A stretch of 62,980 nt of DNA, filler included. It is 13 parts of 13 records of this genome, joined end to end, with 100 filler letters (N's around TTAATTAATTAA, not from the genome) between each part and the next. Parts side by side here need not be neighbours in the genome. Positions count along the whole stretch, not along the records: positions 13,484 to 25,510 come from SRR9670534_517; 12 more parts are not named here. The stretch is one strand, 5' to 3'. This document shows, one piece after another, positions 3,442 through 45,665 of this stretch; the first letter of the stretch is position 1; the number at the start of each line of letters is the position of its first letter. The notes under the pieces are model-generated. The model saw nothing but the letters and a program-made list of their open reading frames with translations, was not told the origin of the DNA and did no database searches. The position numbers and the translations under genes are program-made.

Positions 3442-3541
3442 NNNNNNNNNNNNNNNNNNNNNNNNNNNNNNNNNNNNNNNNNNNNTTAATTAATTAANNN
3501 NNNNNNNNNNNNNNNNNNNNNNNNNNNNNNNNNNNNNNNNN
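3442..3541. other. Artificial contig-joining spacer, the first of 12 (others at 8098-8197, 13384-13483, 25511-25610, 31058-31157, 33289-33388, 35535-35634, 41067-41166, 46456-46555, 50744-50843, 54391-54490, 60711-60810)
   Basis: Every copy is 44 N + TTAATTAATTAA (stops in all six frames) + 44 N; genes are cut off at these junctions. Confidence 0.98.
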
Positions 3542-8097: not shown

Positions 8098-8284
8098 NNN
8101 NNNNNNNNNNNNNNNNNNNNNNNNNNNNNNNNNNNNNNNNNTTAATTAATTAANNNNNNNNNNNNNNNNNNNNNNNNNNNNNNNNNNNNNNNNNNNNCTG
8201 TTGAGCTAATCCTCAATCGCTCACAGTGGTCCTCCACCCACTAAACTCTCACGCGGTAGTGTTTTTGGTGGTGTTTCTAAGAAA

Positions 8285-9607
8285 TTGAGTCCTTCCCAAT
8301 CGAGAGAACTCATTGCTTACTTTCAAGGCCTTACAGAAGAAGAGAAAATGGCTGTAATCCCACAGGGTGCTACCATAACAGTTGGCATGACAGTTTCCTT
8401 CCTGATTAACAACCCTGATATGCTTGCCTTATTCGTGGATAAATTGAACATAAGTGAAGTGTTCACAGCATTAAATGCTGTGAAGAAAATTGGCGAAACT
8501 ACCTTGGATGAAATTAGTGGTCATTTTCGAACCAGGAATTTGAATGGTCATCTTATTTTTAAAACTGCTAAAGCTGGTCAAGTATGGGATGCTCACCCAA
8601 AGGAAGAAATTATTAAACCAGTTATACTTGGCATGAACGAGCAAGAGAAAGCTTGTAAGAAGAAGTTTGTTGATGGGTATGGAGCCCCCCCAGATGAAGA
8701 CAAACATGAGAAGAGAAAAGTTGTGTGGAACAACTACAATGATGTTCATGGTATACCACCGTGGATTGCTATGTACAACGATTCTGATGGAAAGGATCCA
8801 AAAGCTTGGCATACATATATGGTGGCAGACCATTCGATACAGAGAGATAAATGCTTTTGGATTATCACTGATATATTCCAATTAACTACAAAAGTGAATG
8901 ATACTGCACTAAAGCTGAGTTCAGACCTGGTGGTCATTCACAGGAACATTGTTGACTGGAAGTCCCTCGAATTATTGTTTAATAACTTTATACAGACTGA
9001 TGGCCGCCTTGAAGCTGTAATCATCATCGTTCCTTGCTCACTGTACCTTGATGGTAGCGAATTGAAAGATGTTGTTAATGGACTGACCAACACTATGGAT
9101 AACTTCTGTTACAAGAATGGAAAAGCCATCAAAATGATTCTGATGCCTGCCTGGGTCAATGACATGAGTGGACAGTACTTCAAATGGAAACAAGTGAATG
9201 AGGTTCTTGAAGATATGGCAAAAAAGACTGCCAGACGTCGCCAAGTGTACCTAATGGATGCAATGCTTAAACCTGATGAGGAGAAATTGAAGGCCCAGGA
9301 CTGGAAGAGCCATAGTTATGCCGATCCGCAAATTGCTGGACTGAAATACATAAGAAACAATCCATTGAATGGCTATGTATTAACTCAACTAGTCAATATT
9401 TATTGGGGAGCAATCAGAATCTGTATTCAGAACATTAAAAATGGCCAAACCCTGACTTTGCATACCATACCTAACGAAGGAGGTAGGTTTGAAAATTATG
9501 TAAATTTTAACGAACTGTACAACAACTTTTCTAAATTTAGTGGCCAAAAGATCATATGGAGGAAAATCAAAGAGAAATTTCTATCCTTAAGCACCGGAAA
9601 GTGCTAG
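8285..9607 (+). CDS. LINE ORF1; C-terminal half possibly a degenerate SGNH/GDSL esterase-like fold; true start uncertain
   Basis: Intronless 440-aa frame directly upstream of ORF2; alternating pattern WIITD / AVIIIVPC / KMILMP / KQVNEVLEDMAK / VYLMD. Confidence 0.6.
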   Translation: MSPSQSRELIAYFQGLTEEEKMAVIPQGATITVGMTVSFLINNPDMLALFVDKLNISEVFTALNAVKKIGETTLDEISGHFRTRNLNGHLIFKTAKAGQVWDAHPKEEIIKPVILGMNEQEKACKKKFVDGYGAPPDEDKHEKRKVVWNNYNDVHGIPPWIAMYNDSDGKDPKAWHTYMVADHSIQRDKCFWIITDIFQLTTKVNDTALKLSSDLVVIHRNIVDWKSLELLFNNFIQTDGRLEAVIIIVPCSLYLDGSELKDVVNGLTNTMDNFCYKNGKAIKMILMPAWVNDMSGQYFKWKQVNEVLEDMAKKTARRRQVYLMDAMLKPDEEKLKAQDWKSHSYADPQIAGLKYIRNNPLNGYVLTQLVNIYWGAIRICIQNIKNGQTLTLHTIPNEGGRFENYVNFNELYNNFSKFSGQKIIWRKIKEKFLSLSTGKC

Positions 9608-9693
9608 GACACACAATCTGCTTCTGTTTCTTTTTTTAGTAATAATCATGTTTTTGAAAATTTTGAATTGTCTTTTTTGAAACTCTACTGCAT

Positions 9694-12600
9694 ATGACCA
9701 ATTATAAACAAAACCAAAATTTATCCGTAGTGTACACCAATATCTGAAGCTTATGCAAAAAGTATTGGAAGATACAATATCACATTGTTGCTTCTAATTT
9801 ATTCTTCATAACAGAATCGTAGTTGGCATCAAATATGAACTTTGCCGAAAGTGATCATACCTTTTGGAGACTTGATAGAACCAATGTACATGGAGGTATA
9901 TGTATTATTACATGAAATGATTTAAAAACTAAAATTTTTTTCAGCACAAACATGATACCGATCCAGTGCTTAGCAATTACAATGGCCAAGATGGTACTTG
10001 CATGCTTTTATATCTGAAGTGGTGTAAAAGAAGACGATTTGATGGAAGTTTTTGAGAAATTGCAAGACGAGATTGATCAAACCAACAAACAATTGGTTTT
10101 CATAACAGATGATTTTAATGAATGTGCCTTGACAAGCACAAGATTTCGTAATGTCATTACCTTTTTAGAAGATACTGGACTTGTGAATAGAACAGCCCCT
10201 GAAATCCGATATGGGAGCAAAGGGATAGACTGGGTTTTCGTCAATTTTAGCAAATTCACCTTGAGAAAACACAAGGTCTTACCAAAAAGATACAGCAACC
10301 ACTATTTGCAAACTATGCAATTGAAAACACGGCTAAATAAACTGGTTTCCACTTGACGAACCTCCTGGAAGTCTCTTGATAAACCGCAGCTCACTCAAGA
10401 CTTCAAACTTTACTATGGTGAGTTAATTGATTTCTTAGCAATGGATGATTGGATACTAACTGAACGAGATAGCACCTATATAGATGAATATTTAGATATA
10501 ATCAACATGTCACAGAAGAAGGCCCTTTTGGATCAATCTTTGAGTAAGGTGAAGGTAAATTCTGGCAATCACCAGCTATGGAAATTTGGGCAAGATGAAG
10601 AGGTAAAAAAAGCTAAAGTGAAGATACAAGCAGCAGTTACGGCTGGTGACAACAGCGCCAAAGAGTTTTGGGTAGGTGTCTTACTTAATATCAAAAATTT
10701 ACACAGACGAAAAATTTTGTCAGAAATACGTGACAACTGTCCTAAGAAATATTATTGCATCTTAGACAATTTAACAGGACAATTATGACAACAGAAACAT
10801 CGAATTGATGTAATTCAAGTGAATGGTCGCAAATACACAAAACTGGCTGAAATTGCCAACCATTTTTGTAAATACTATTCGAACATAGTTAAGACAATGT
10901 TAATTAACAGGAACTTAATTGTTCCAAAAATTAATTTGGACAAGTTCTTGAACACCGAACTATTGTTTATGAGGAGACTGACTATCAAAAGTACAGGTCT
11001 CAAAAAAATTGTTCAAAAAATTGATACTACAAAAGCAGGTCCTCCAGATAAACCTCCGAAATATATAATTAAAAATTTCTGGTTATATAATTTGGATGTA
11101 TTAGTACATATTGTACAGACTATGTTTAATACTAGATGCTTCCCATCTGAATGGAAAATCAGCTCAGTCACACCCTTGCATAAGGGTGGTGACAAAGAGA
11201 ACATGAAAAATTTTTGCCTGATTAGTCTCCTTGATAGCACCAGTCTGGTAGCAGAAAAAGTGATATTACAAGAGCTGAAGAAATTGGAACTGAAATTACT
11301 GCATATTGACCAATATGGGTATCGTACCCATATTGGTACCATGGACGCCTTGGTAAATGTGCAGCATTATGCCTTTAAAATGAAGCTAAAGCATAGATAT
11401 GTTGTTATAATCTCGCTTGACAGCAGTAAAGCGTTTGATTGCATTTCAGTTGAAAAGTTTATCACCATATTGCTAGACAGAGGCATTGATTACCAATTGG
11501 CACAATTGCTTTGGTCTTATTTAAGGGGAAGACAGATGGCAGTAACTATCCAAGATGAAAAATCGTATACACAAGACCTAGAATTTGGAACACCACAGGG
11601 TAGCTGTCTTGGTCCCTATCAATACAACATCTACCATAGTGATATGTTGAGCATGCAGGACACATGTTCTGCATGTGAAACAGATTGCTATGGTGAATGT
11701 GATTGCAATAAATTACAAACTTATGCTGATGATTCTTTGATTTTTAGTAGCCACCCCAATGCCAATGTTGCCCTCAATGCTGCTGAGGAAAAATTGAAAG
11801 AAATTTCAGGTTATATGAAAGATCAACAACTTATGCTTAACTCTGAAAAAACCCATTTGGCTATTTTACCCCCAGTTGGTGAACCAATGGAAGGTATATA
11901 CAAAATACATTTAGATGGACAGGATATTACTAATGTAAATTCATTTAAGTGTTTAGGTGGATATGTTGGTAAATTTCCTGATACTGAAGAACAACTTAAA
12001 GTAATATCTGACAGGATAAAGTATGGCATTCATTGAATAAATTAGGTGAATGAATTTGGTAAATTGCATGTAATAAGAGATTTATTTAATTCTTACATTC
12101 AACCACATTACTTAAATTCTACTTTTGTGTGGACTTCGGCTACTATTAAAAAACTAGCCACACATTATCGCATAATAGCTAAAAGAGTGTTAAATTTACC
12201 GAATTTTGTAAGCACTGCTGCCACTTTTTACATACTGAACATAGTTGATATTGAGAGCCACCTGATTTGGATTAAAGCAAGGTGGCTCTTAAAAGATCTT
12301 ATTAATAAAAAGCAAACACACTTTTTTTAGATCTATGGTGCAATAATGTAAAAAATCAAACACTCCAGCTGCATTTGGAAACTAATGATTACATAATGAA
12401 CAAAGCAAAGCTGCTCCTTAACAAAGAAGTCCTACAGAGAAATTCTACCTGGCAAAGCTGGAAAACAATAGGGCAGCTCAGTAAGAATGAGTTGCAATTC
12501 TTTTCAGATTGGACAATGGCCAACCTCACAGCCTGGAAAACCAAGAAGAGGAACACCAACCACCTAGATGCCCTGCAAGACACAGGCTTAAAAGACAACC

Positions 12601-12755
12601 AACTAACATGGCTCTTTCAAGGTACACTGAAAGAAGAACGAAAATTTAGACGGATCCCCCAAACAACAAGTCGGGCCAATTGGAAATCTTTATTACAAGT
12701 GGCCAATGTGAGAGTTAGAAAGAGAGAGCAAGACATTGCGAAAGTTAACACATAA
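9694..12755 (+). pseudogene. LINE ORF2 (apurinic endonuclease + reverse transcriptase) with in-frame stops and a late frameshift
   Basis: APE motifs VVYTNI*SL, FFITES*L, DRTNVHGG, TDDFN, IDWVF, SNH; RT motifs WKISSVTPLHKGG, QYGYR, SLDSSKAFD, GTPQGSCLGP, YADD, LNSEKT; one frame from 9694 to 12330. Confidence 0.92.
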
Positions 12756-13315: not shown

Positions 13316-13539
13316 GGTTCAAAAGTACAAACTGCAGTACGGAAACAGATGCACATGTGTTTACATATATGTAATTTTTGCATNNNNNNNNNNNNNNNNN
13401 NNNNNNNNNNNNNNNNNNNNNNNNNNNTTAATTAATTAANNNNNNNNNNNNNNNNNNNNNNNNNNNNNNNNNNNNNNNNNNNNAAAAAAAATAATAATAA
13501 TAATAATAATAAAAAATTTTAATAACAATAAATAATACT

Positions 13540-16500
13540 ATGGTGGTAGGAATGGAAAAGAAACCAAGCCGCGTAACATTTGATGCTGAAGCAAATAATC
13601 AAAGGTATTGATAATGTACATTAACGTTGCCATTATTATTAATATGTTATTATAATAATGTTAATTAATATTATTATTAATAATCGCATGTATTATGTAT
13701 TGTATTTATAATGTTATACTATGTACTATGGATAATAAATAAACTTTATTATTTTTTATTAATAATAACCAATAATAAGAGGTCGATATTACGTGGGGAT
13801 ATGCTCACAAATGTTGATGAAACAAGAGCCTTTTGATGACTTTTGGCTCTGTTAACGTATTAATTTTAATTATTAATGATGGTATTTGCTGCAAATATAA
13901 TCTAAACGGTAGAATTTCCATTATTTAGTGGTGAAGAAGATGTTTCAACCGCTACTTCACAAAGATACAAAATTTTTTCTCAGACTCGAGGAAGTTTGGA
14001 TTTTATGGTACATGAGTACAGGCCAAAGTGGGATGTCTTCAATAGTGGGACTAGTGAAAACCAACCATATTCGTTATGGTGCCGTAAAATCAAAATAGTC
14101 AGTGTAACTTTGGCAAAATTGCTTGCTATGGTGGTAGTCCTTGTGTTAGTTGCTGCAACATCATTTATCAGTACTATGACTCTGTTAATCGCCACTGCCA
14201 GCACTACTATCATGAGTGTATCAGAAAGCGCCGAAAACGCCACTAACGCCACTGCCAGAAGTTCTTTGACTACTACTATTGATGGCAATACTGCTAAGGT
14301 TAGTATTTCAGAAAGTAGCGAAAACATGAGCAAAGTTTGATGGGTTATTTGTAACAGTACTCATAGGCATAGAGTACAGTACTTGTAGCGCCATCTACTT
14401 AGATAATTGCTTTCCCGCTGTTTCGAATTATCATAAAATTTACATAATGAAATGCAATAATTTTACTAATCATTACACTAGCATTTTCAGTTTATTTTAA
14501 TTTTAGCAAAGTTCTAATATACCCATATGTTCTGACTACAGATATGCTTGGCAACTTGCCCTCTTTGGCATCGTTTGCATTCCATATGGCTTTGGTGTCT
14601 TACTTGGGCTGAAGCAAATATGTTTTAAGAAGTTTCGTATTCCAAATGGTGACAAATGGTTGCAAATCATTTTCGTAAGCTTATTAATTTTCCATATCAT
14701 GTCTTTGAAGTACCAACTAACTAAGTAATATTTAGGGTTTTATAATGGAATTTCTGCATACAATAGGTAGTGGTTTTTTGATTTTTTACTTTTTCCCTAC
14801 ATTTCTTGAGCTACGAATGCATTACATGGCAACATTTTCGCTGGTTTGCGTGGGGATTGTGCCTGCCTTTTGCAGAATACTTTATTTCATCATTCATTTC
14901 AAGTCAAAGAAGTTTGCTACTTTGTTAGATAGACTCAAATTTGCATTTGCGATCTTTGCGTGTTTGGTATTTGCGTTCACGCCATTGCTACCTATTTCGC
15001 TAATAAAGACTGACCGTAATTTTTTTAAAATTGGATTTGTTATACAAGACGAGTCCTACCAGAAACAGAAAGCTGCTATGGTAGTATTATACTTTATTTG
15101 CATAACATTAACATCTTGCAAATGGTGGCATATATTTGCACAAAATTCACCCAGAAAACGCCCCAACAAGGTGCAAAGATGGCTTTATGTCGCTAAAACA
15201 GTTATGCAAGATAATGGCATCTGTACAATTTTTGCAAATTTTTTAAAGATTGTTATAGTTTTGTTATTATTTATTTGTTCTACCTCTATCAAGCTTGGTA
15301 TTCATAACTTCAATATCAGTCTGAAGGATTGTTCAACCAAGTCTTCCAGCGAGGGCGTCAATGTCAATGTAGTTTATGAAAGCTTTCCATTTATTGTCAT
15401 GGGGGTAAATATTGGGTGTAGTATAATTTGTTACTACATATCTAGAATTGCAGCGAAATTAAGGATGTCATTTGTTGGTTTTGTACTGCCTTTAAGTTTG
15501 GGATTTATCGCAACGTTAGCATTGGAAATAGTCGGCGATAAATCTAAAGTATTTTCGAATGTGTTGAAAGGCTTCAATCATACCTTATGGCCATTTTATG
15601 GTGATGGGACATTGGATAGCTCAGATACTTTTTCTATGATGCTACCGATTACCATGTACATTGTCACTTTTGTATTTTGTGAATATTTATGGTTTTCACC
15701 TGGTTATATGTTGAAAAGTAAAAAGTGAGTTACGGATATAATAGTATTAATACATTCCTAAAAAATACCAAAGATAAGTGAAAACATAGCTAAAGTAATG
15801 AATTTTAGAATATTTTTTGATCCCGTCTTCCCAACAACTTTCTTGCCAGCTAGTTTATTGTTTAACAGAATGCTGATTCGAGACAATACAAAGAACAAAT
15901 CGCGAACGGAAGTAATGTACAATTATTATTATTAATAATAATCTATGAAGATAATTGACACCAATGATTGCTGTCAATTGTTTCATATTTATACCAGGAA
16001 GTAAATACAAAATGTGACTATGGTGTCACGTGACATATACGTACATACATGCATCGTAAATAGCGTATACTGCAATACATACTGAAGAGGAATGATTATT
16101 ATTAATAATCCTTACTAATGATTTATTACCGCTTGTTGTTACGTGTTACACAATCTGTATACACTCCTTGCAACGATACAATATTATTATTAATCATAAT
16201 AATAATGCTATGATGTAACTTTATATGTATGGATTTGTATATTAAATATGATATAGTATATTATTAATAAATATGCCATGGCTATGCCACGGTTTTGCTA
16301 TGTATTAGTATACTGTACATAGATTTTCCACTATATCAATGATATATTCAATATTATTGTATCATATAATATAGATATATTCTACATTTGACATGTAACA
16401 TTTAGCCAATATTTATGCCATAATTTACTCTGCCTTACACTAGAGCAATGCAGAACAACAAAACACCATGTTGTATCTTTGTGCAACAATATGGCATGAA

Positions 16501-19500
16501 ACAGAGACTGAAATGGCGCAAATTATGAAATCATTTCTCAGAATGGACTTGGATCAGAGTATAAGAGATACAGCCAAAAGTCGAAGATTCCAGATCAATC
16601 AATACTACGACATGGAGGGTACAATATCACATTCATTATATTCATCATTTTGACTAATAATGATAACAATAACAAAGAGACATATAAACTATAGATTATA
16701 ATGAATGTTTGTAGTTCACGTTCTTTTCGATGATGCTTTTGTGAAAAATGCTGATTCTGATAATAGTTACCGGATAAATAATTTTGTGAGACAATTTATG
16801 CGGATTGTGCCTGAAACCGTACAGTAAGTTTTCTTTATTTGCAATGACAACACAGTCTATGGAATTCTGTTCTATTTTGTATAATTTTTAGCTCCTTCTA
16901 TGGTGGGAAATGTAAGCTCAGATCCTTTGAATTTACTGAAACCAGTTATGGCGGAAAAATTGGTGCGTCTTTTATTTTAATTTGCTGGTAATATCTAATT
17001 ACTAACAATTGTAAGTCTAAACACATATTGTAGAGTACTTACTGCCAGGTGAAAATAAGATGGTTGTTCATTTAAAAAATAAAGATAAAGCGCGCCATAA
17101 AAAGAGGTGGAGCCAAGTCATGTACATGTACTATTTGATTGGCTACCGCATTTATGAGAAGTATGAAGAAGACGATAACCCAACTGCAGCGAAAGACATT
17201 GCAAGGAACACGTATTTACTTGCTCTAGATGGTGATGTAGATTTTCGCCCAGAATCTGTTCATCTTTTAATGGATCTGTTGAACAAGAATGATAAAGTTG
17301 GCGCATGTTGTGGCAGAATTCATCCAGAAGGAGCAGGACCAATTGTTTGGTATCAAAAATTTGAATACGCCATGGTTGGTATTTGTAGTTATTATTCATA
17401 TTAATAATAATTATAGTAAAAACTGTTGAAATATGGTTATGATATTAAATTTTAACCCTTGCTTTTTAGGGGCATTGGTTTCAAAAAGCCACAGAGCATG
17501 TGTTTGGTACAGTGTTGTGTAGCCCAGGTTGCTTTAGTTTGTTCAGAGCCAGTGCCCTTGCTGATGATAATGTGCTCAAAATGTATACGAAAGAACCTCA
17601 AGAACCGAAGCATTTTCTGCAATATGATCAAGGTAATAAGTAACATTTACTAAAGCACATTTTTTATTAATAACAAGAAAAAATAGGCTACTAATTAAAT
17701 AATGAAACTATAATAATGCATGTAATATAATAGGAGCCTATGTATTAATAATAATTATGAAAATTCAAAACCAATAATAAGTTAGATTTTCATAAAAATC
17801 AATAAACAATTCTCATAAAATATCAATAATAGGGGAAGATCGATGGTTATGCACACTTCTAATAATGAAGGGGTACAAGGTTGAATATTGTGCAGCTGCT
17901 GATGCTTTTACCTTTGCACCAGAAAGCTTTGGTGAGTTCTACAATCAAAGAAGAAGGTGGATACCCTCCACAATGGCAAATATTTTGGATTTACTACTTA
18001 ATTCTGCAGCTGCTACCAAAATTAACCAAAGTTTATCCATGCCTTATACCATCTACCAGGCCATCCTATTTGCTTTTGGAGTATTAAGTCCTTCAGTCTT
18101 GCTACTTATGGTAATTGGTGCATTAGACAAAAGCTTACCAATCAAATTTTGGCAGTCCTTTCTGACAAATGTTGCAGTACAAGTCATTTTTGTATTAGTT
18201 TGCCTTAAAGTAAAGAAATCCGCTATACAGGTAGAAAAACACATGTGATAAAATACGTACATAGCTTTATTAATAATACTGCAATTTTTAGCTACGATTT
18301 GCCATAGTTTTTTCGACAGTTTATGCATTGGTGATGGTAAGCGTAATAATTTCTATGGTGATACAAATTGTGCGCGATGGACCGTCTTCGCCAGCTGGTG
18401 TATTTTTGATAACTACTGTTGCGTTATATGTTAGTGCAGCAGTATTCCATCCTCAAGAATTTTTAAACATATTGCATGGCCTAGTCTTTTATTTAATGAT
18501 TCCATCAATGTATATTTTGCTTATGACTTATGCAATCACAAACTTAAATTGTGTTTCATGGGGTACAAGAACATCTGCGGTAGCCACGCCCACCAAGGCA
18601 AAGGCGGCAAACAACAATGGTGACAATTTTATTAAAGGACTGTTTATGAGGGCTTTAGAGAAAGCATTTGGAAATGATATATTTCCAAAAAAACAACCTC
18701 AACCAGGTAATATTGCACATTACTATCGTTGACATCTTTTACATTAGAATTAATAATAATAATAATAATCTAAGTAATTTTTAGAAGTTGTCATCAATGA
18801 TGACAATACCTCCGAAAACACCCAGAGTCGGGCCGACAGTTCAACTTGGGATACAATAGAGATGGTTAGGATTAGAGAAGAAAATGATGCTAAATATATT
18901 ACAGCAAGAGACGAATTAGAAGAAGAATTTTGGAGTACTTTTATTGAGAAATATTTGAAACCTGTAGATCCTAAAGGTTCTGCACAATTAGAGATGAAAC
19001 ATGGATTGGATGAACTTCGAAACAAAGCTACTTTTGCATACTGCTTTTTGAACGGTTTACTTTTAATAACAGTTTTTATATTGGAATTTACCAAGGTTAA
19101 AAATTGCTTACTGATTCCTTGGATGTTCGATAGTTCTAGAAAAATGTCTGATGTTATAAAAGATGTCTCTCTTCAAGAAACATATGCAGCGAATTGCACA
19201 TTTTTACGAAGTGAGATAAATGGCGAACTTTATATCAGCAATTCAATAGATCCCATTGGTGCCTTATTCTTCGTTACATTCTGGATACTCTTGGTACTGC
19301 AATTTATAGGGCTTTTAATACATAGATTATCAACCCTTATTCATATTTTGGCAAAAGCTACTTATGGAGATGATAGTAAAGATGTCAAAGGAGATGACCT
19401 ATACAACTACCTAAGGGCTGGCGTTATGGACGAGATAAACCCTTCTTATCCTGATGGCAACCCACAATTGCCAGGTGGAGGCAGCAGAAACACTTCAATA

Positions 19501-21301
19501 TCAAATATGTCTTCGAAAAGTAGCTTAGCTGATGTGGTAAAGAAAAGTGAAACTAGGAAGAATACTATCAAATCAGTATTGTCAATCAAAAGAATGCTAG
19601 AAAAGCGTTTAGACAGGGAAGTCAATTTGGATTTCACAGCAACTGAAGAAACTTTGGACCAACAAGAACAAGAAGTTCATATGTCACATAAGAGAGTGGT
19701 AGAAATGTCAGTTATGAACAAGAGTTCCTTTAAAAGATCATTTTGTCAAAAACTTGAAGACAACATTGATAGCAATACTATTGATAAAAATGATGAAATT
19801 CAATTACTACAAAACAGTGAATGGATAGATGATGAAGTAATGTCATGGGTTACAACAAAGCTCAAGGAAAGGTTTGTAATGTTGGAGGGATTACAACCAA
19901 CGACATTTTGTGAAAGTCCTGACAACTTTCATAGAATAACAAAACTGCCAAACGTTCAAATTGTTTTTGAAGCAAGTAGAGCACATTGGTTTTTAATTGG
20001 TCAAGTAAAACCAGGCATTATAAATGTTTATGACAGCATGCATGAAGATGATTCTTATTACCAAAATGATGACAAATTAAAGGAAATATTTACCAACATT
20101 TTTGGCCCAAGTTATGAAGTTGTAGTTATTCCTATTATGCAACAAGACAATAGGCATGACTGTGGTTTATTTGCCATTGCGAACGCTATTGAAATTTGTT
20201 CATTCAAGTGGACATCTATTAGCAACATAATTTGGGATAACAGCATAACTATGCGTCAGCATCTGAAAAATTGTCAAAGAGATGACAATTTGATGCCCTT
20301 TCCAAAGGAATTTTGTGGCAATGATTTGGCATGTACCAGTTCAGAAACTAAATGTTCCTTCCATGGCAAAAATGAAAACCTTGTACCATCAGATAAAAGA
20401 AAAGCCAGTGGAAAAAAGAAATATGTTATTCAAAAAGGGATGTTGTTGCGGCAGAGAAGAGTAAGTGGCTCTCGCCATCATTATAGAATTAATTCTGGAG
20501 AGAAATCTGTCCCAAAGATCGAACCATCAACTCCTATAAGCCAAGTTGATGTTACAAGTTCGCACCTTGCAGAATTTCCGAAGCAAAATGATATAAATAG
20601 TGGAGATAATGAATTTTGTGAAGATATAATGAAGTCTGTTGAAGCTACTATTTGGAAGAGAAAATCTTCTACCTTTGGGAAAAATGATAAAACAAAACTG
20701 AACAGTCGTTATGTAAAAATCTCAAAAAAGAAACGCGCTGCACCAAAAATGAACAAAAGTATTGTCAATAGCACCAAATGCCTGACTGATTCTGGAGATG
20801 ATTCCATTTGCAGAAGCCATAGTATTCCTCTCAGTGTTGTACCTGATCGTCAGGTTGATAATCACAACAAGAACGATGGTAACTATTACTCGTTGAAATT
20901 CTTATAACTTGTATATTACGTTTTTAGGTTTAGACAACACTAGTAATGAACTTTCAGAAATCTCATTTTCTGATGATGTTATTAACCAAAATCAGGATAG
21001 AGAACGTTTTTCAAACAATTCTGAAGATAATGAGGAATCATTGAATTCTAATAAAAACAAAAGTGAATGGGCGTTTGAAGCACAGTTAGATGATCTGAAT
21101 ATTGACAACGGGAGTGTGATATATTCTGTTCCAGAAAAACTGTCTTATGCCTCCATGGAGAAAAACAAAAGAAGTTCATGTATTTCAACTGAAAGTGAAA
21201 ACCGAAAGGACAGTGGTTTTCAAGGCTTGAGTATGGTTGATGTTGATGTTGATAATTCATCTCATGCTATTATTAATAATAACAATGGCATATTCGTATA
21301 G
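13540..21301 (+). CDS. CHS: Chitin synthase (GT2), about 14 exons, with a C-terminal Ulp1/C48-like cysteine protease domain and a low-complexity tail
   Basis: CATIWHET, FDDAF, HKKRWSQVMYMYYL, LALDGDVDF, GACCGRIHP, WYQKFEYAMGHWFQKATEH, LCSPGCFSLFR, QYDQGEDRW, QRRRW, SWGTR, EEEFW..KYLKP, ELRNK; long exon 18785-20878 and final exon 20928-21301; first exon (13540-13604) tentative. Confidence 0.95.
19790..20306 (+). other. Ulp1/SENP-like (clan CE, C48) cysteine protease domain inside the chitin synthase ORF
   Basis: WIDDEVM..GLQPT..VQIV..AHWFLI (His 19984)..INVYDSM (Asp 20032)..QQDNRHDCGLFAIANA (Gln 20143, Cys 20161)..MRQHLKNC..PFP. Confidence 0.85.
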
Positions 21302-21893
21302 TAATAAGTTATTTATGTGCTAGGTATAATTAGTTGCAATAACCTGAGTTTGAGAAAGCAGCGCACCAAGGGCTCGAATTTTCTCGCACGAGGGTAGCAA
21401 CGAAGGTGATAGCTAAACGTTTAGGTATCACCTTGGCAGCAACTATATTTACGATTTGCTTATTATTATAAAGATTTAGTTTGTTAATGTAAGGAGATTT
21501 TTAATAAAGAATAAAAATTATAGAAAGTTTAAATATAAATTTAAACATGTCTTTCTAATAATATAAGGCAGTATACGAAATTATTGACGCTAATAAAAAT
21601 TGCAAATGCATGGTTTTCTATATCAATAATTCATGCACAAAAAGATGTCGGTAGTGTCAACGAGAAATTCTCCAATATATGACGGCTTTCCTGCACTTCA
21701 TATCACTAATTATGTTATTGCAGTTATAGTAGCACAATGACTTGGTAATGTCTCAATTGCTTGAGAATACTGTAAAACAAAGCACCAAAACTTCTTCACA
21801 AATAAACAAAAAAACCCATCCACTTGTCGTTCTATTAAACAGCGCATGATCGTTAGGTGATAATTAGTTTTTATTATTACGCCAATCAGAACA

Positions 21894-24800
21894 ATGGTAG
21901 GTGTTAATTAAGAATATTTCCCTAAAATGCATGTGTGCCAATTTGTGTGCTATGAATTTAAAAGTATTAATTATTACAATTTGTAGTATGGTTATTTGGT
22001 AAATTGCATTAAGACATACTTGGTTGAGCATCATGGAGAGAATGTCTGGCTGGAGATAGTGTAAGTATGAGTGAGTTCTTACATGAAATTATTTCCATTC
22101 TTCAATTCTAGAAAAAATGCTAAAGTTCCAAGTGCATTTAACGAATATGACAAATATGGAGATCCAATCCTACAGAGAATTATAAATACTGCATCCAAGG
22201 TTCTAAAGTTTGAAAGGAAAAGGCTTCTGACTATGATAGGAGAATACTATTTAACCTATTGTCAAACAGTACCAGGTCATGCAGATATCCTAACAAATCT
22301 GGGTGGAAGTCTTATTGACTTCTTGCAAAATCTGGATTATGTGCATACCTTTGCAAGGAGTAGGTATGAAGACATGGATGTTCCTTCTTTTAGATGTGAA
22401 GACGATTCAATTGAAGAATTCATCTTATTGCACCACTATACAAAATATCATGACTTTTATCCATTAGCTGAAGGTTTATTATTATTAATTAATAAATATT
22501 ATAACAAGCATACCTAACATATTTGAATATATTGCATTTATTTTCAAAGGTATTATTTTGCAAATTGCTCGAGTGATTTTCAAGGTGCAATGTAACATGG
22601 AAGTGTCGCAAAAGAATTTGATAAAACTTCAAGCAAATGGTCCCAACATTCAGCACATCCTCTGGAATATTACAATTAAAAAACCAAAAAAAGTAGCTCC
22701 AATGGCACCTCCAACGTTTGTTGCACAAACAAAGAAAGGATCAGAACAACAAATTTTAAAAACTGTATGTTCTTATATATTAAAATGTGCAGCTATGGAT
22801 GTGTTACAATTTTTAGTAACAAAATACAATCATAGATAGCTATGGTATTTAGGATGTTGATGCCATTAAAACGAAAATCGCTAAACTGATGAAAGAAAAG
22901 GGTGCTAAAGCATTTGGTGTTTCAAGAAAGCGACAATTGAGAGCCAGATGGAAGGCCATCTCAAGAACTGTTGGCAAATATAGAAGGATGACAGGCAAAA
23001 ATCCTGACATAGGTGATGGTACTAAAGCATTTGCAGCTTACTATCCTAAAGAACTATACTTAACCTCCAAATCATTCTGCAACCTTGTTCCATACCACTT
23101 CATATTTGATGAGTACCTCTTCATCAGACAAGCAGGATTGTCACTTCAAGTTTATATGCCTACCATAAAAGGTGCAGACGCTAAAGTGCATGATTTCTTT
23201 GAATTAGTACACCCTCCAAATGTTGACATCACATTTAACAACTTATTGAATATGATTCAAATGCCCATGATTTTCCAAAGCAAGATAAGTGTTTTGCAGA
23301 AGGATTGGGGTGACAAACCGCCATTGATTTTCAAAGGTACCTACTAGTGTATGCATCATCATAATATTGTATCATTACTACTGTAAACATGTTACAATGT
23401 AGGGCAAATCTTCAAAGCTAAAGAAGGGCATCTTGGATTTATGGGTTCACCATATTTAAGAAGTTTCAAGGATCTTAAAGAAAGGCAGCAATTTTTAGCT
23501 GATATTCCACTGTGGGATACAACTAGAGAACTACTAATAAAGCTTCATATGGATGACATATTTGAAAAACAAGGAACAAAGCTTGCGCCAACAAGCACAA
23601 TTAATGTGCACACTACAGAAATTATAAAGGTAGGACCTGATCATGATAATTTCGAAAAACTACAACTAGTTCAACAAGAAGCTGAAGCAGAGCGGGTAAA
23701 AGAGCGACAACTACATTCAACAAAATGTGCACAATTAGAGAAGGAGTTAAAGGCAGCGAAACAAAAAGCTGCTGAAATGAAAAAAGAGCTTGACAAATTC
23801 AAGAATATAATGCCTGAAAAAGAAGTAGTAAATAATACCACCCACACCAAAAAGGTGATTATAGTTTCCAAAACAGTAGAAGATCCAAGTGCTAGTAAAG
23901 ATCCCAATGTCGATAAATGTTCCATAGATGAGACTAAGTAAATTCACTCAGTTAGTATAATAATCTATTGTTATACATGTATAATATGCACATTATTTCA
24001 GTCAAAAAATCGAGTTAGATGAACAAGTCAAAAAGTTAAAAGCCGACATGAAAAAGCGGCAAGAAGAATTAGATGCAGAAAGGAAGCTGAATGAGTGCAT
24101 GGCAAGAAAATTTTTGCCACGCCCACTGGTGAAGGATTGGCGGGAAGGAAGATTAATGCAAGGGGGTAAGATAAACTCTCTCCACCAATAATAGTCTATC
24201 ATTAACGGATCTTCGCAATAGGTGAATTTCCTGGAGTATCATTACTGTTTTGTGATCTCGTTGGTTTTGTCAAAATGGCGAAAGAATGCAAGATAACAGA
24301 AACAGTCAGTTTAATCAACAAACTGCATCGAAAGTTTGACAAATTGTGTGAGCATCATGACGTCTTCAGAGTATGTATCTTGCTACTTATGTAATCTTTC
24401 ATGACGATATAAATTTTTTATATAGAATGAAACAGTTGGTGACGCTTACATGGTAGCGTCAGGGATACTTGACTGCACCCCTGCTTCAATAGAAAAAATT
24501 GCTAACACAGCGTTAGCAATGGTGGCAGCATCCAAGGAAATGAATCACCCGCTTAATAAAACAGAAACGTTGCAAGTAACAAATATAACTATGTTATGTA
24601 ATTCACCTAAAATATTCACTAACATAATAATTACAATGCCTTACATATTACAATATGATATGAAATGCCATTTCAGTGAAATGATTTCACTGTGTTACAG
24701 TAGCACCAAAAGTATTGTTAATCATAATATTATGTTAATAAAAATATTACTAATATATCCTTATATTGTAAGATTATTGTTAATATTTTGGTTATGCTGA

Positions 24801-25223
24801 TTAGTAATCAGTGATTACGGCAACACACTATTACTATCCAATAATTAAATTAAATACTTGATTTATGAAATTTCTTAATTTTACAAGATAAGAATTGGAA
24901 TACATACCGGTTCAGTGCTAATTGGAGTTACAGGCAACAAAATTCCAAGGTTACTGATGCTGGGAGAAACAGTAACATTAACCTCAAGATTGGAGAGTCA
25001 TGGCATTGGAGGGAAGATCCATTTAAGTCCAATTTCACAGAAGTTACTAAATGATACAAACAAGTACTTAATAACAGAACGGGGAGAAATCGTCGTACGT
25101 GGATTTGGATCTATGACTACATACATACTTGTTTCACATTTGGCTTTGGATGAGAAGGATCTACTTGGTGGCGTTGAAATTGTTTATGAAACCGTCAAAA
25201 GCAGCAAAGTCCCCTCAAAGTGA
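21894..25223 (+). CDS. Soluble guanylate cyclase subunit, atypical (H-NOX, PAS/HNOBA, coiled coil, cyclase), multi-exon
   Basis: ATG-only first exon then YGYLVNCIK..HGENVW; LGGSLIDFLQNLDYVH; PSFRCE; FCNLVPYHFIFD; LFCDLVGF; ETVGDAYMVASG; IRIGIHTG; SRLESHG. Confidence 0.92.
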
Positions 25224-25481
25224 AATTACTTCATCCTTTGACATTTCATTTATTCATTATTCAGTATTATAATACAATATTATGGTAAAACAAAGGCAAA
25301 ACTATTAAAAAGCAGTGGTATCGCTATGGGCTGCAACCATGGTCTAATGTCATTGTTTTAGGAAACAAACAAAAATGTAAGGCAAATTTGCCGGTACTCT
25401 ATCATGTTACTTCATAGCAAAACAGTAAAATGAGTGTTACACTATAGTTACTATCAAGGATATTACACACTGTGTAATATC

Positions 25482-25510
25482 CATAGACAAAGAGAATCTC
25501 TTTGTCTATG
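25482..25510. repeat. CATAGA...TCTATG palindrome at a contig end, abutting another hairpin (25458-25482)
   Basis: CATAGACAAAGAGA-A-TCTCTTTGTCTATG, preceded by GGATATTACACA-C-TGTGTAATATCC. Confidence 0.75.
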
Positions 25511-26245
25511 NNNNNNNNNNNNNNNNNNNNNNNNNNNNNNNNNNNNNNNNNNNNTTAATTAATTAANNNNNNNNNNNNNNNNNNNNNNNNNNNNNNNNNN
25601 NNNNNNNNNNTCCAATAGTGGACCCCCTCTAATTGTGGACTCTTCAAAAATATCTTATGAAGAAATAGTGAACTTAGTCCATGAATGGAGAAAATATGGT
25701 AATTGAGTTTACAAATATGTCTGCTTAAATTTTGTGTACTTATTAATAATACTGGTTATGGCTAGGTAGACATTAAAACTTTTTAAAAAAATTTTTATAA
25801 GAAAGAAATTTCAAAAAATTTTAAAATGTTAAATTTTTAAATTGTGCCTAGATAAGTTTAGATAAAGTTCTTGTAGTTTGCTTTAATAACTTATATACTA
25901 ACATTGTATTTTGTCAATGATTGTGTTATGTAGTACCAAGCCTCTCTATAACAACTGTTAAAGAGAGCCTTGGTAGTACATAATATGTACCTACATAACG
26001 TTTTGTTACCTACATACATTTTGTTACGTATGTTACATAACGTTTTGATACATACCTATTCATATATGCACAGTAAACCAATAAGTGATTTGATATGTGT
26101 TAATAACCAGTAGGTACCTAGCTAGGTATGTATTATTAAGTTTGCAATTGATAAATATGCAGTTGAACTTTAATAAATCTGGAAAAGATCAGAATGTACT
26201 TTTAGGTGCGTATATCTGCCAAAGAAATCGTAGCTTCAATTTGAA

Positions 26246-39575: not shown

Positions 39576-41224
39576 GCTACAATCAAATGATGAAGAGAAA
39601 TTTTATTTGCAACTCTTGTAATACATATATATTATTGTCCTGATTATGCAACACATGGACAGATTTATTACTCCAATAGGATTTTAATAAATATAGCAAT
39701 AAGTAATAATGAACTATGATCATAGTTACCGAAGGTATCATAAACAAAAGTATACAATGCTTATTATTAATCATAGACGTAATACATAATACATCAATAA
39801 CAATAAAGGCGACATCTTTTGATAATAGCTTTAAGTAGGTCAATACTTCCCATTTGTAAACTTGAGAAATTCAACTATCAGTCAAAGAGTGCCTTCAAAT
39901 TATAGCACAAGCCTATTGTGGTTTTTTCGAAAAGAAGACAGATTTCTCCAGATTTACAATCTTTTTGCCTTCTGCAAAGAAGACTGTCCTTACCAAAAAT
40001 CTACGAATATGGCGTTTATAAAATTATGTTATAAAATTATGCAATTCTTACGTCAAAGTTTTTATAACGAGTAGCTGCATTAGCAATCGTTGAAGCCGAC
40101 ATGAATATACAAAGAATGACCAAGAGTCCAGTAAAATTCATTTAGTACTGATGTTGTTATTGGTAATAGCAGGTATAAGGTAAAATGAAAAATAAATATT
40201 ATTAAAAACTGCAAGTCGAACATTAATAAATACCATATTATGTCTGTCAATCGTCATGATCATCATGATAAAAATAATTAACGGTTGGAGTCTCAGGATT
40301 ATGATTTAGAAAATGCCACAGAGTAAATAACATCTTTAAACTAGGTGCGAGTGGATCCACCTACTGATTAATAATATTCCACTCAAAAACAAATTCTGTT
40401 AATGCCTATTCAATGGGAGACTTTATCATGCACAAGTCCACTTGGTTTACTTAATAATTTCGTAGTACGTAATACATGGGCCGATCAGGCGGCCTACGCA
40501 AAATATAATATGTAAATGGTGCTCTGCTATTTTTATTGTAAGTCTACTGTATCAAATTATTCATAATACCATAAACACCCACTTGTGACTTCTATTTATA
40601 AGACAAATTGAAAGCGGTAAAAATAGCGACATCTAGAAAAAGATGCTTTAAATTTTTGCTATATTATAATATATTCACGTATTACTAGTATATGAATATA
40701 TTCACGTATTAGTAATAGGATATGTCATTTATTATTTATTCTTATCAAAGGTAATAAACACATTATTATTAAATAGGCAAGAGCTTCATGTGGCTAAAAC
40801 ATAAGCCCATATCATAATTTTTTCTCCAATAAACGCAAAATGAACCTTGCTTGCAGTCTGTATCATCCTTGCACAAAAGGCTGGTGCTCTTCATAAATAG
40901 CTAAAGAACCATGATTAATTCATAAGTATTGTATCATGCAAAATCATGAGAAATAACGCATAAAAAATTTCAATTTTCAAATTTATTGGGAAAACTTTGA
41001 CTAGGGTACAACGGTTGAAGCCTACCTAAGCTTTTGCAAAAACTGATTTTGTATAGAAATCCCATANNNNNNNNNNNNNNNNNNNNNNNNNNNNNNNNNN
41101 NNNNNNNNNNTTAATTAATTAANNNNNNNNNNNNNNNNNNNNNNNNNNNNNNNNNNNNNNNNNNNNTATCAATATAAATAATTATTGTTATTATTAATAA
41201 TATTATTAATTATAATATATATAG

Positions 41225-41661
41225 GGTCTAATTTTAATGATAATGGCTTCCTGGATAAGACGTGGTGGCCCAATGACACAAAAAGAGCATTTTCAAAAGA
41301 AGCTCAATGTCTCTTAAAATCAGCTAATAAGAAGCCTTGTCTGGGTGATATTGGTGGTATAAGAATAGCTTTTTATGCATTAAAGCAGTGGCAAAGACTA
41401 GCATTCCTACTTAAAGGAGCCAGCAGTGATGAAGCCCTAAAGTTACCTAATCTTCCCCAGGACTTAAATCAACAAGACAAGATCTTTTTCATTCAAGCGG
41501 CACAATCATATTGTTCTGAAAAAAGGGATGTTTTATATCCACACTATCAACAGGTTATCAATGATGTCATGGCAAACTTTGAGAAATTCTCTGAAACATT
41601 TGAATGCCCAGTTGGGTCGAAACTGAATCCGAAGAAAAAATGTTCTCCTTGGGGACAGTAA
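41225..41661 (+). CDS. Neprilysin/M13-like gene, copy A (last exon only)
   Basis: FNDNG..WW..TKRAFSKEAQC..DIGGIRIAFYA..LPNL..FFIQAAQSYC..NFEKFSETFECPVGSKLNPKKKCSPW. Confidence 0.85.
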
Positions 41662-42151
41662 ATATCATAAAATTAGTAATCAAATTTTAATAATGAAATA
41701 AAGAAACAACAAAACTGTTCAGCACAGCCTGGCTTTCCGAAAGAGTCTTTGAGATTTAATTAACAATACAATGTTTATTAATTAGTCTTGAAGCTGTTGA
41801 TATTATAGTATAGTCATAATTGTATTCAAATTATGGTTAAAATTACCAAAGTTTCTTACTATTTAATGATATATCTTTTATTCAAAAATGTCTGGTATTT
41901 GTGTTGCTAAATAATACTTACCAATGGTATTTTACCAAAATATAGTCATCTAGTATATTGTTATTATTAATAATATTATTATTAGCATTGAATATTATAT
42001 ATTTGTTATAGTTTATTACAATAATTAAATTATTATAATTTGCTTATTTTTTGCAAATTAATAGCGTTTTTGACATATTCGTATGTACAAAACGCACAAT
42101 TTTTAAAGTATTTTTATTTTACAAGAAGATTTACCAAAAGCTCACAATACT

Positions 42152-45100
42152 ATGGCAGAAGATTTATCAAAATCTATTGGGGGTGCGAGAAGAGGAACAC
42201 CACCTTCCAGCAAGTCTGTTAAAACCCCAGAAGTACCATTGGTAGCACCAGTTGCACAGCTCTTGCAAGCTCCTCCTCTCGCGCCAGCTCCTCCTCCTGA
42301 AGTTATTCAATACCCAGTAATTCCTCAGGTAACTCAATACCCAGTAATTCCTCAAGTAGCTCAATACCCAGCTCTTCCTCCTCCTCCTCCACCACCTCCA
42401 CCACCTGAGGAAACACTCACTAAACCTGAGCAATTGTCTAACGAACCTCCATCAGAAAAAGATGTCGCTGGTGAAGAGCTTGATGAAGAAAAAAGTGAAA
42501 TACTTGAGAAATTGAGAAAAAGAAGACAAAAGTTCCATATTCTTGGTTCAGTTATCATTTTCTTGGTATCAACCCTCTTTATAATCTTTGCTGTTCTTTA
42601 TCTTACGAAAGGAGTAAAAGAAAGACTTTATCAAATGACCTATTTTTACAATACAACAGGTGATGGCATCTGTAACTCACCTGCCTGCTTTGAAGCCGCT
42701 GAAACCATACTTAAGCATGCAAATTTAAATGCTGATCCTTGCAAAGATTTTTACACGTACTCTTGTGGAAATTACAAGAATCCTAATCCTCCCCTTTCTG
42801 CTGCATCGAAATATTTAGATAGTAACATAGTTCAGTTACTAAAAGGGGAGAAATTGGGTAAAGATCCTTATTATAAACCCCAAAAATTTCAAAGTATGAA
42901 GAAGTTCTACGATCTCTGTGTGAAAAAATTTGGCAAATTGAAGGACATTAAACAGCACAATCAATCGATCGTTTTTAAATTAGAAGCTTTGAAGAATGTG
43001 ATAAAGGACAAAGAAGAGGTTCTAGCCTTTTTTACAAACTTGGGATATTTGTTTAAAAGTGGTTTACAAATTGATGCTTTTACCCATCAGACCATGTATC
43101 CAACCCTTCGCCAAGGTGAGCTCTTGATACCGTACCAGGATTACAAAGAACAAAAAAAATCGTCCATTGAGTTTGCTAAACAAACTTGGAATAAGTGGGT
43201 TAGAACATTGGCACCAAAAAGCCCAAATATTGAAGAAAACACTGAAAAGGTAGCTAAATTTGAAGAAAAGGTAGCAAAATACATGTTTGAAAGTGGTTTT
43301 GAAGCGTCACATCAGCAAAATTTCAGAGTTGGTGAACTAGGTATTTTCTACTCTGCTTTGAATTTTTTGAAATTTTTTAAAGCGTTTTTTAAATGGAGCC
43401 AATATGAAACATTTTTGGAAAACAAAACCAAGGAGATGATTATGGTATATGAGGATTTTAAAAATCACCCCTTTGTAAATGCATTTATAAAGCTCTTTAT
43501 CTCTGAAATTTTACCCAATCCTGAATTGGTGCACCATTTGGCTTTGATAAGATTAATACAAATGTACCAGAATTTCTTGTTGGAAAGCCCAAAAAGAGCA
43601 GAATTACAGTGTGTTAAGGAAGTAAATAAAGGAATTCGTTTTGGATTTCCTCTTGCAGAAGTCTATGATAGGGAGTTTTTAATAAAGGAAGAATCCAGAC
43701 AATCCTTAGAAAAACTGTTCAACATTTTGATCCATTCTAAAAAGAATAAGTTGACAACAGTACCATATCTCAAAGAAGAACACGAATGGATGGTTGAAAG
43801 ATTACAGAAAAAAGCAGATGAAATGAAAATGGTTGTAATTGATGGTAAACCATGGACTTTCATGGACAATATTTATGATTTGCAAATGAATGATAATGTC
43901 AGCTTGATAAAGATTGTGGACACTCTGGAACTTGGTCATGCAAAAAGTCAATATGAACAGGTTGTGGAAGAAAAGAAATTTGATAAGAGCAGCCATTGGC
44001 CAGATGGTATATCGCCACTGGGAAATGAAACATATTATATTCCTTATGGAAATTCCTTGGCTGTACAAACTGGATGGTTAATGCCACCTTTCTTTTATAA
44101 AGGAGGGGCAGAATTTCTCAATTTTGGTGGCTTAGGGTTGAAAATGGCAGACCTCATTGATGAAGCCCTAAGTTTGGCAGGTAAGATTTTGCGTTTGAAG
44201 TACCACCTGCCAGTAATGCACTGGCTATATTAGTGGTACTATCATAGTGGTTTTGAACTTCAAAATTTGAGCTTCAAAAGCTAAGCTGATTCAGCTTATA
44301 GGCCTATAGTATAGTATATGCGGCGCATATATTGCATATAGTATACGCGGCGCATATTATGCCCATATAAATATTGATTAATAGCATAGAGATAAATTTA
44401 TTTATCTCTATGATTATTAGTAGTAATGTAATATATTTATTTATCTCTATGATTAAAAATAGTAATGTAATATATTCAATGTATATACAACAGTAAGTTA
44501 CTATTGTACTACTAAATCATATCAGACTGATAGTTAGACTATATTATAGTTAGGCTATATTATAGTACTACAATGTATGGTTACCATGGTAATATACCAT
44601 ACATTGTGGAATATTATACTATAATACTATTACTATATCATTATACTATATTATAGTAGTATACTATATACTGTGGAATAATGCAATATATTACTACTAG
44701 TAATTACTATAATATAGTAATTACTATTAATAGTCTATTACTATAATATAGTATTTACAATTTGTATAGTATATAATGTCTAAGTTTACCATTAATGAAT
44801 TCTATACACTACAATAAAAATAGATAGTAGTTATTAATATCTTAAGATTATATTATAAGATATTATAATAATATCTTATAATATAATTTTACAATATATT
44901 GCACAATTAATAAAACTGCTTTAGGATCCTAATAAGTCGATTACTTAGAAAAATTTATATTACCAGCTGTATTACGTAGAAAAATTTATTGATATCTTAT
45001 ACATCGCTTACATAGGGGGCATGTTTAACGAAAAGGGTTTGTTAGTAGAAGACCCTTATTGGCCAGATATTATTATCAAGGATGCATTTATCAACAATTC

Positions 45101-45389
45101 AAAATGCTACAATGATCAACATTTCCTATGCAGAGGCTTAAGGGCTGGTTTTCATACTTTAAAGCAATGGCAAAATAATGCTAACAATAATGAAAATTTA
45201 AAACTACCAAAACTTCCAAAAGGTATAAATGATCTGGAAAAGATCTTTTTCATTCATTCTATTCAAAGTCATTTCTGTGCCAGTAAAGATCATGTGGACT
45301 ATAATAAATATAAAGATGGTGCAAATTATTTGGTGAAAAATTTTGACAAATTTTCTGAAACCTTTAAATGCCCAGTCGGTCAAGCATGA
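42152..45389 (+). CDS. Neprilysin/M13-like type II membrane protein, copy B (exons 42152-44180 and 45016-45389), lacking HExxH
   Basis: Pro-rich cytoplasmic tail, one TM, CNSPACFEAA..ADPCKDFYTYSCG, PPFF..LNFGGLG, FSETFKCPVG. Confidence 0.88.
44385..44412. repeat. 28-bp CATAGA...TCTATG palindromic mini-insertion with probable 8-bp TSD
   Basis: CATAGAGATAAAT-TT-ATTTATCTCTATG; flanks ATTAATAG / ATTATTAG match at 7/8. Confidence 0.72.
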
Positions 45390-45665
45390 ATCTCAAAAAG
45401 CAACTACAGACATCAAACAACTGCTATTTTCAATATATTTATTATGAATAATAATAATAATCTTCTTTATGATTATAATAATAAATATTGTGATAGTAAT
45501 TATATTTTAATTTAGAATCATACTAATCTTAGATTAGTAATCTAACTTACAGTTAAGCTTCTACGAAAAATACATTATAAAACCTCTATTTAAAATTATA
45601 AAAGAAAACGCTATTTTATTAAATTTGAATATACAGCAAACTTAGCAAAAACTTTTGTTCTAAAT

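Follow-up and report, generated by a model that had tools for sequence, protein, structure and literature searches.

An open reading frame that carries an animal chitin synthase gene into a Ulp1-like protease domain with mobile-element relatives

Does an animal chitin synthase (CHS) gene encode, as part of the same protein, a cysteine protease of the Ulp1 type? The question is raised by a locus within a 62,980-nucleotide (nt) stretch of DNA, filler included (the window), in which the part at 13484–25510, from record SRR9670534_517, carries a CHS gene whose last large exon continues into Ulp1-like sequence. An initial annotation of this DNA, based on the letters only, had proposed that an intact synthase is fused in frame to an intact clan CE protease. 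We describe below the frame, its two halves and their relatives. On balance, though not by a wide measure of confidence, we hold that the locus encodes a real, translated CHS–Ulp1 fusion of transposon origin.

The uninterrupted frame running from the end of the CHS into the protease was borne out: it extends from stop to stop over 18778–20907 (+ strand), that is 709 codons, and ranks second in length among the 8709 stop-to-stop frames of the window. The motifs quoted in the initial annotation are all where it had placed them, with EEEFW at 18919, IDPIG at 19246, HILAK at 19342, WIDDEV at 19822, AHWF at 19981, VYDS at 20026, HDCG at 20155 and MPFP at 20293. Since stop codons occur at a background frequency of 0.0742 per codon over all frames of the window, 709 open codons are no chance event: by arithmetic from this rate, the probability is about 1e-24 for the whole frame and about 2e-5 for the 141-codon linker alone. 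The gene and its parts, all on the + strand, are as follows.

13906–18706, + strand: upstream CHS exons, encoding the N-terminal multi-transmembrane region and the catalytic core
17375–17469, 17633–17832 and 18231–18291, + strand: introns read from the sequence
18707–18784, + strand: phase 1 intron (GT..TTTTTAG) linking the SWGTR exon to the large last one with the frame kept
18785–19368, + strand: CHS C-terminal module, with the EEEFW..KYLKP stretch followed by transmembrane-like segments at about 19024–19116 and 19240–19350
19369–19785, + strand: linker of about 140 codons (141), open, polar and devoid of hydrophobic segments
about 19786–20403, + strand: Ulp1/C48-like clan CE cysteine protease domain
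20404–20878, + strand: in-frame tail, basic, rich in Ser, Asn and Lys, of low complexity
20879–20927, + strand: putative 49-nt phase 1 intron (GTAACT..TTTTTAG), proposed from a splice scan
20928–21301, + strand: putative terminal coding exon, acidic and Ser-rich, ending in ..GIFV (ORF 20897–21301, TAG at 21299–21301)
21050, + strand: candidate poly(A) signal (AATAAA)
21503 and 21510 (21503–21515), + strand: candidate poly(A) signals (AATAAA) after the 21301 stop

The successive segments of the frame resemble one another. The GC contents at codon positions 1, 2 and 3 are 0.40/0.34/0.28 for the CHS C-terminus, 0.42/0.33/0.33 for the linker and 0.43/0.30/0.29 for the protease domain, the tails being alike, and all five segments scored best in frame 0 with a codon table derived from the CHS core.

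The protease domain was characterized with the 709-residue protein encoded by the frame (P0001), to which all query residues refer, and with a family alignment (A1) comprising the window sequence and 40 relatives. A HMMER search over 1.84 billion representative sequences returned 1029 relatives at E<=1e-3, 37 of them at E<=1e-10, the closest being 32% identical (E 6.5e-21). A family hidden Markov model (HMM) built without the window sequence matched residues 337–542 over its full length with 150.7 bits. In A1, the window sequence keeps all three invariant and all 14 near-invariant columns (start Met aside), including HW, DS, Q, DCG, A, MRxHL..C and FP. The putative catalytic residues, His (codon 19984–19986), Asp (20032–20034), the oxyanion Gln (20143–20145) and Cys (20161–20163), occupy invariant or near-invariant columns in the order His-Asp-Gln-Cys, and HW, YDS and QQ..DCG line up with SENP8 (phmmer against the PDB, E 0.11).

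Structure prediction pointed to the same family. An AlphaFold2 model computed on A1 (pLDDT 85.3, pTM 0.81) gave 40 Foldseek matches in the PDB at E<=1e-3, among which SENP5, SENP1, Ulp1, SENP3, NopD, NEDP1 and XopD fell between E 2.5e-7 and 1e-4; the top matches (SENP5, SENP1, Ulp1, SENP3 and NEDP1) had a probability of 1.00 and TMq values of 0.55–0.62, and lower matches comprised bacterial CE-clan deubiquitinases and YopJ-type acetyltransferases. The A1 profile, window sequence included, matched in the PDB a Ulp1-like SUMO protease (8.3e-10), SENP8 (2.3e-8), Ulp1 (6.6e-8) and also SENP1, with values ranging to 1e-7. The CE-clan fold match to which the initial annotation had tied its reading was thus found for SENP5, SENP1, Ulp1 and NEDP1, and its assignment to clan CE/C48 with ordered catalytic residues agrees with the A1 columns, the fold comparison and the profile matches alike. 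As judged from alignment and model, the domain is a clan CE, C48-type protease fold with its catalytic residues in place. An adenain-like (C5) identity was considered and rejected, all top sequence and fold matches being C48. The domain shares with the SENP/Ulp1/NEDP1 enzymes (PF02902, MEROPS C48) the CE-clan fold, with E 2.5e-7 and a TM score of about 0.6 for SENP5, and the His-Asp-Gln-Cys order, but is only 12–20% identical to the solved structures; moreover, the enzymes of the cell occur in soluble form in the nucleus or cytosol, whereas the domain of the window would form the tail of a polytopic membrane enzyme.

The CHS half shows the hallmarks of a metazoan type-II chitin synthase (GT2): a Chitin_synth_2 core, the EDR, QRRRW and SWGTR motifs and flanking transmembrane clusters. 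The core motifs CATIWHET, DGD, GEDRW, QRRRW and SWGTR are all present, GEDRW and QRRRW in the frame 17796–18248 and SWGTR in 18292–18732, and the GEDRW/QRRRW exon (17796–18248) matches Pfam Chitin_synth_2 at 4.9e-12. Two arthropod CHS (P0152 and P0153), aligned by tblastn, gave six blocks over 16450–19368, with identities of 31–71% per segment over 16450–18636 and of 46–71% over the catalytic core (17030–18600). The last block, 18910–19368, is 32–34% identical to arthropod CHS residues 1232–1360 and 1264–1395, ending at 19353 and 19368, respectively; residues 1264–1395 belong to a spider CHS of 1603 residues. No tblastn match to the arthropod CHS was found beyond 19368, and a search with the CHS C-terminus retrieved the two arthropod CHS only (32–33% identity). 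Of the hydrophobic segments recognized by a hydropathy scan, five lie between QRRRW and SWGTR and two follow the EEEFW..KYLKP stretch; the remaining codons (at least 500) after these two last transmembrane-like segments contain none. An NCT sequon is present in the loop that separates the two. Because no frameshift or stop was seen in the exons homologous to arthropod CHS, the synthase looks functional; by sequence, the gene looks like an intact, arthropod-like type-II CHS, in line with the intactness claimed at the outset. Within this half, the 15-nt string TACTGCAATTTTTAG (18277–18291), which precedes the acceptor of the intron 18231–18291, recurs with one change at 19295–19309; the recurrence of TACTGCAATTTTTAG inside the sequence coding for the last transmembrane helix is probably due to chance.

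Is the exon read through as one piece? The first stop met by the CHS frame is at 20905, so that the CHS mRNA must either include the protease domain or splice it out. The only donor scoring 7/9 in 19369–19790 is AAT↓GTCAGT at 19707, which differs from the G↓GTAA or G↓GTAG donors of the gene; the only GTAAGT donor-like site, at 20461, lies past the protease domain; and no AATAAA occurs on the + strand between 17807 and 21049. Donor and AATAAA scans of the stretch from the last transmembrane helix to the domain thus revealed nothing pointing to domain skipping. These data favour a colinear reading of the exon through the protease domain, and translation of the fusion as such appears reasonably probable.

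A different possibility is that the Ulp1 protein is made independently, from an internal start or a promoter of its own, the CHS read-through being incidental. Several in-frame ATG codons precede the domain (19400–19720), and stand-alone proteins of 150–400 residues form the majority of the best 150 of the 1029 relatives. Against such a nested gene stand the lack of a stop in the CHS frame before 20905 and the lack of a strong donor by which the domain could be spliced out of the CHS mRNA, and we regard it as very unlikely.

Downstream from the domain, no stop was found in the 189 tail codons counted from 20311. If 20879–20927 is not spliced, the frame ends at TAA 20905–20907; the initial annotation had placed the end at 21301 instead, a coordinate explained by the 49-nt phase 1 intron, which would join 20928–21301 in frame. 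The introns of the neighbouring guanylate cyclase gene measure about 56–65 nt (read by eye), and the putative terminal exon has 123 open codons and a weak codon score (0.002, frame 0). The tail would accordingly measure about 160 residues if it ended at the 20879 donor or at the 20905 stop, and about 280 with the terminal exon spliced on. Neither the linker (residues 195–340) nor the tail (residues 512–709) matched a Pfam family or gave a usable match in the ESM Atlas, and the putative terminal exon (20928–21301) had no Pfam match either.

The window consists of contigs of 2–12 kb chained by six-frame-stop spacers of the form 44N-TTAATTAATTAA-44N.

3442–3541, 8098–8197, 13384–13483 and 25511–25610: spacers, with eight more in the window

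As a consequence, gene order across spacers may be unreal. The entire CHS–Ulp1 gene lies within a single gap-free contig block, 13484–25510; N runs had been considered as gaps near the locus and were discarded as such, since they are inter-contig spacers and none lies inside this block. A chimeric contig, in which a CHS 3' end would have been joined to unrelated Ulp1 sequence, would be in keeping with a fragmented draft of short contigs set between spacers. Yet such a join would have had to hit the right frame by chance, and within a run free of stops; moreover, the composition is uniform, neither N nor repeat occurs at the junction (19369–19790), and the nearest spacers are those at 13384–13483 and 25511–25610. 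Such an artefact is, if anything, even less likely than a nested gene, and we consider it highly probable that the fusion is real in the genome.

What is the origin of the domain? Most of its relatives are short proteins, spread over many animal groups; Xenopus laevis, a krill, a caecilian, Mytilus and the sponge Ephydatia are among their sources. Mobile-element domains were recognized in 9 of the 22 relatives scanned.

P0054 and P0112: MULE and FLYWCH
P0087: DDE_1 and HTH_psq
P0009 and P0016: retroviral-type integrase C-terminal domains, in giants of 3852 and 4446 residues
P0092: SWIM
P0075: YqaJ
P0019 (Tf2-1 SH3) and P0117 (endonuclease–reverse transcriptase): weaker matches, below the Pfam cut-offs
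P0166 (rve, C48 and PHD) and P0161 (MULE and PHD): further proteins, by Pfam annotation

According to the text of Bao, Kapitonov & Jurka (2010, PMC2836005), Ginger1 and Mutator transposases carry Ulp1 modules, with or without a PHD finger, at their C-terminus; what these modules do is there a matter of speculation only, on transposition and DNA repair. The transposon origin guessed in the initial annotation fits these relatives on Ginger1-type and MULE transposases, as far as that account goes. The window domain belongs to the same sequence family as the Ginger1/MULE modules, sharing the motifs WLxD, GLQ, VQI, HW, YDS, QQ..DCGLFAIA, MRxHL and PFP, whereas its upstream partner is a chitin synthase rather than a transposase: Pfam recognized no transposase, the mark of Ginger1 and MULE elements, on the ORFs of 18778–21298, the sequence upstream being CHS. 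The PHD finger, found 3' of the domain in many relatives, is not retained here, with one PHD Cys column left (alignment A2). No convincing terminal inverted or direct repeats surround the domain within 18000–23000; the longest inverted pairs measure 14–26 nt with 71–100% complementarity, and those bracketing the domain, 19434/20991 (22 nt, 73%) and 19552/20819 (17 nt, 82%), are of chance quality. The domain is present in a single copy in the 63-kb window. From these sequence features, we infer that it is what is left of a Ulp1(+PHD) transposase module, a lone protease set within a host exon. A parallel exists in plants, where KI-MULEs spread ULP-like genes (Hoen et al. 2006, as related in PMC2836005) and transposon-borne Ulp1 domains likewise became parts of host gene models; by that account the plant domains differ in belonging to another kingdom and in not being joined to a membrane glycosyltransferase.

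The same combination was looked for in other proteins. No CHS was present among the best 150 of the 1029 domain relatives, all five of those longer than 800 residues having been scanned by Pfam. A word-indexed search of long proteins (1242–3545 residues) for the domain gave none at E<=1e-3 among 102 candidates, which is weak evidence, and the 709-residue query compared with proteins of near length gave 14 matches, which cover at most 26% of the query and never unite both halves. Among the papers listed in literature searches, titles and abstracts contain no report of a fusion between chitin synthase and Ulp1/Peptidase_C48; the co-mentions with Ulp1 are unrelated, one being that of yeast septin sumoylation, which steers an activator of chitin synthase III. 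The initial annotation, whose author knew of no Ulp1 fusion of a CHS, is upheld to that extent by the databases and by these titles and abstracts. The animal CHS architectures surveyed in the main text of Zakrzewski et al. (2014, PMC3942024) include a myosin motor (lophotrochozoan and fungal), SAM, IQ, Cyt-b5 and DEK_C; the word 'protease' is absent from that main text, and the supplementary tables may list further CHS architectures. The gene of the window shares with the CHS described there a conserved core and a terminal extra domain gained by domain shuffling, but differs in that its extra domain is apparently transposon-derived and C-terminal, and in being a protease, which that text does not name. 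CHS plus C48 is a new domain combination built from two known families.

The mobile-element kinship also suits a neutral passenger, i.e. a Ulp1-transposon fragment or mRNA retrocopy that landed recently, in frame, in a poorly conserved CHS tail, and that either brings the host no benefit or is removed by an unconventional splice. Besides the link of the domain family to mobile elements, such a passenger would explain why the CHS tail past the last transmembrane helix has no detectable conservation (no match after 19368), why no orthologous fusion was found in the protein databases searched, and why the PHD finger is not retained and the tail is of low complexity, as in drifting sequence; the unconventional splice could use the weak donor at 19707, several acceptors being present after 20800. 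It fits less well with the roughly 450 non-domain codons (linker 141, tail 189, terminal exon 123) that are also stop-free: at 0.074 stops per codon, the insertion must be either very young or constrained. Further points against a passenger are a closest database relative that is only 32% identical, a composition matching the host exons, the absence of terminal repeats and of a transposase remnant at the locus, and a contig that is unbroken through the domain, as a young high-copy element would be expected usually to break a short-read assembly. We view a neutral passenger as a serious minority possibility.

The reading that we favour, a translated fusion, can be set out as follows. A type-II CHS gene would have acquired a Ulp1/C48 domain of the transposon family within its last large coding exon, in the variable C-terminal tail; the domain would go back to a mobile element of which neither the transposase part nor the PHD finger is left, and the mRNA, colinear with the exon, would be translated into the fusion protein. 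Along the predicted protein, the CHS core is followed by five hydrophobic segments, then by the SWGTR loop, the conserved helical stretch and two transmembrane helices, and finally by a polar linker of about 140 residues, a complete Ulp1-like domain and the low-complexity tail.

On which side of the membrane would the protease lie? In related synthases, a WGTR-type gating loop closes over the cytosolic active site. As SWGTR would correspond to this gating loop and two transmembrane segments follow it, the tail should be cytosolic; by this topological argument the protease domain is probably cytosolic as well, in the compartment in which SUMO, NEDD8 and ubiquitin occur. In PMC11750622, the gating loop of hyaluronan synthase is identified as WGTR and likened to the loops of cellulose and chitin synthases. 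If active, the domain could then act, tethered to the membrane, as an isopeptidase that frees the synthase or its neighbours from SUMO, NEDD8 or ubiquitin, and the stripping of these modifiers would set where and for how long chitin is made.

Alternatively, the domain might cut its own protein at an adenain-like site, L-P-G-G↓G, encoded in the linker at 19468–19482, thereby releasing the protease or maturing the synthase. The cleavage consensus of adenain, also a clan CE enzyme, is (M/I/L)XGG↓X, which the LPGGG of the linker fits. The chance of an LPGGG-type motif in a 140-residue linker is estimated at about 7%. Complex prediction with the Ulp1 domain and linker residues 205–260, which contain LPGGG, scored 0.09 against a mark of 0.34 and speaks neither for nor against self-processing; self-cleavage is less likely than action as a tethered isopeptidase. 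Control of the synthase by self-processing, or of its trafficking by deSUMOylation or deubiquitination, as suggested in the initial annotation, is pure inference. That the protease function is under selection at all is doubtful. The full proposal, a domesticated cytosolic protease that strips the synthase, or nearby trafficking or septin-like partners, of SUMO, NEDD8 or ubiquitin, or that cuts its own LPGGG site, is in our opinion unlikely.

Several points weigh against a translated and functional fusion. First, the protein encoded by the window has no match to Pfam PF02902 (Peptidase_C48) at E<=1, and hence none at the gathering cut-off, which 9 of the 20 relatives scanned do pass; the sole Pfam signal is RickCE_cat (E 0.037), whose 14.8 bits fall short of the cut-off of 27. 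Comparisons with the single sequence are weak, those at the level of the family strong. Of the two domain checks named in the initial annotation, the predicted fold matched SENP/Ulp1 while the Peptidase_C48 model missed the window sequence; its observation stands, and its interpretation holds for fold, frame and transposon kinship but not for the Pfam C48 match. The domain is also rather divergent, ranking 91st of 111 on its own family HMM, for which the family median is 187 bits. Second, no protein in the databases searched combines a CHS with a Ulp1 domain. Because no protein has both halves, the fusion is lineage-restricted at best and lacks comparative support. Third, P0022, a protein of 584 residues, consists of a CytochromB561_N (TMEM209-type) N-terminal half and of a domain of the same Ulp1 family at residues 403–569. 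Gene models in which a host gene and Ulp1 are united thus occur elsewhere as well, and these may be merged predictions. Fourth, the assembly is a fragmented draft, with short contigs chained by spacers, and the intact frame could reflect a very recent insertion rather than selection. Finally, in the classical model of insect CHS topology five transmembrane helices precede WGTR and the C-terminus is extracellular. We know of no ubiquitin-like substrate outside the cell, and an extracellular tail, as in this older insect model, therefore argues against a role on ubiquitin-like modifiers.

The remainder of the window, which is AT-rich animal DNA (about 32% GC) with short introns, contains the following genes and elements.

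22071–25223, + strand: soluble guanylate cyclase gene (HNOB 6.3e-21, Guanylate_cyc 3.9e-22), in the same contig block, downstream from the CHS
103–1574, - strand: Wnt gene (Pfam wnt 4.1e-57)
59468–60112, - strand: nanos homologue (zf-nanos 9.1e-19)
41182–46511, + strand: first neprilysin-like gene, with a proline-rich N-terminus (Peptidase_M13_N 5.9e-18 on 42107–44233)
46658–49357, + strand: second neprilysin-like gene, in tandem, judged by eye only, with a proline-rich N-terminus
8210–12755, + strand: non-LTR retrotransposon occupying its own contig block, with a 465-residue ORF lacking a Pfam match followed by reverse-transcriptase ORFs (RVT_1 6.1e-25 on 10789–12033)

The tandem neprilysin-like genes are followed by a single-exon ORF of 899 residues with a NACHT domain (NACHT 3.3e-10). 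A palindrome with directly adjacent arms of 25 + 25 nt, 80% complementary, lies at 21394–21443, about 95 nt past the 21301 stop, in what would be 3' untranslated or intergenic sequence.

Should the insertion be neutral or unexpressed, it would be ordinary transposon debris in the 3' end of a gene. A true fusion, by contrast, would clearly exemplify the recruitment of a transposon-borne Ulp1 domain by a membrane enzyme of the host; if the protease also acted on the synthase as proposed, both the regulation of this processive polysaccharide synthase and the fate of the transposon protease would be of a new kind. The trafficking, activation and turnover of animal chitin synthases are poorly understood, zymogen-type activation having long been discussed, and a built-in clan CE protease would, if real, offer a testable handle on them.

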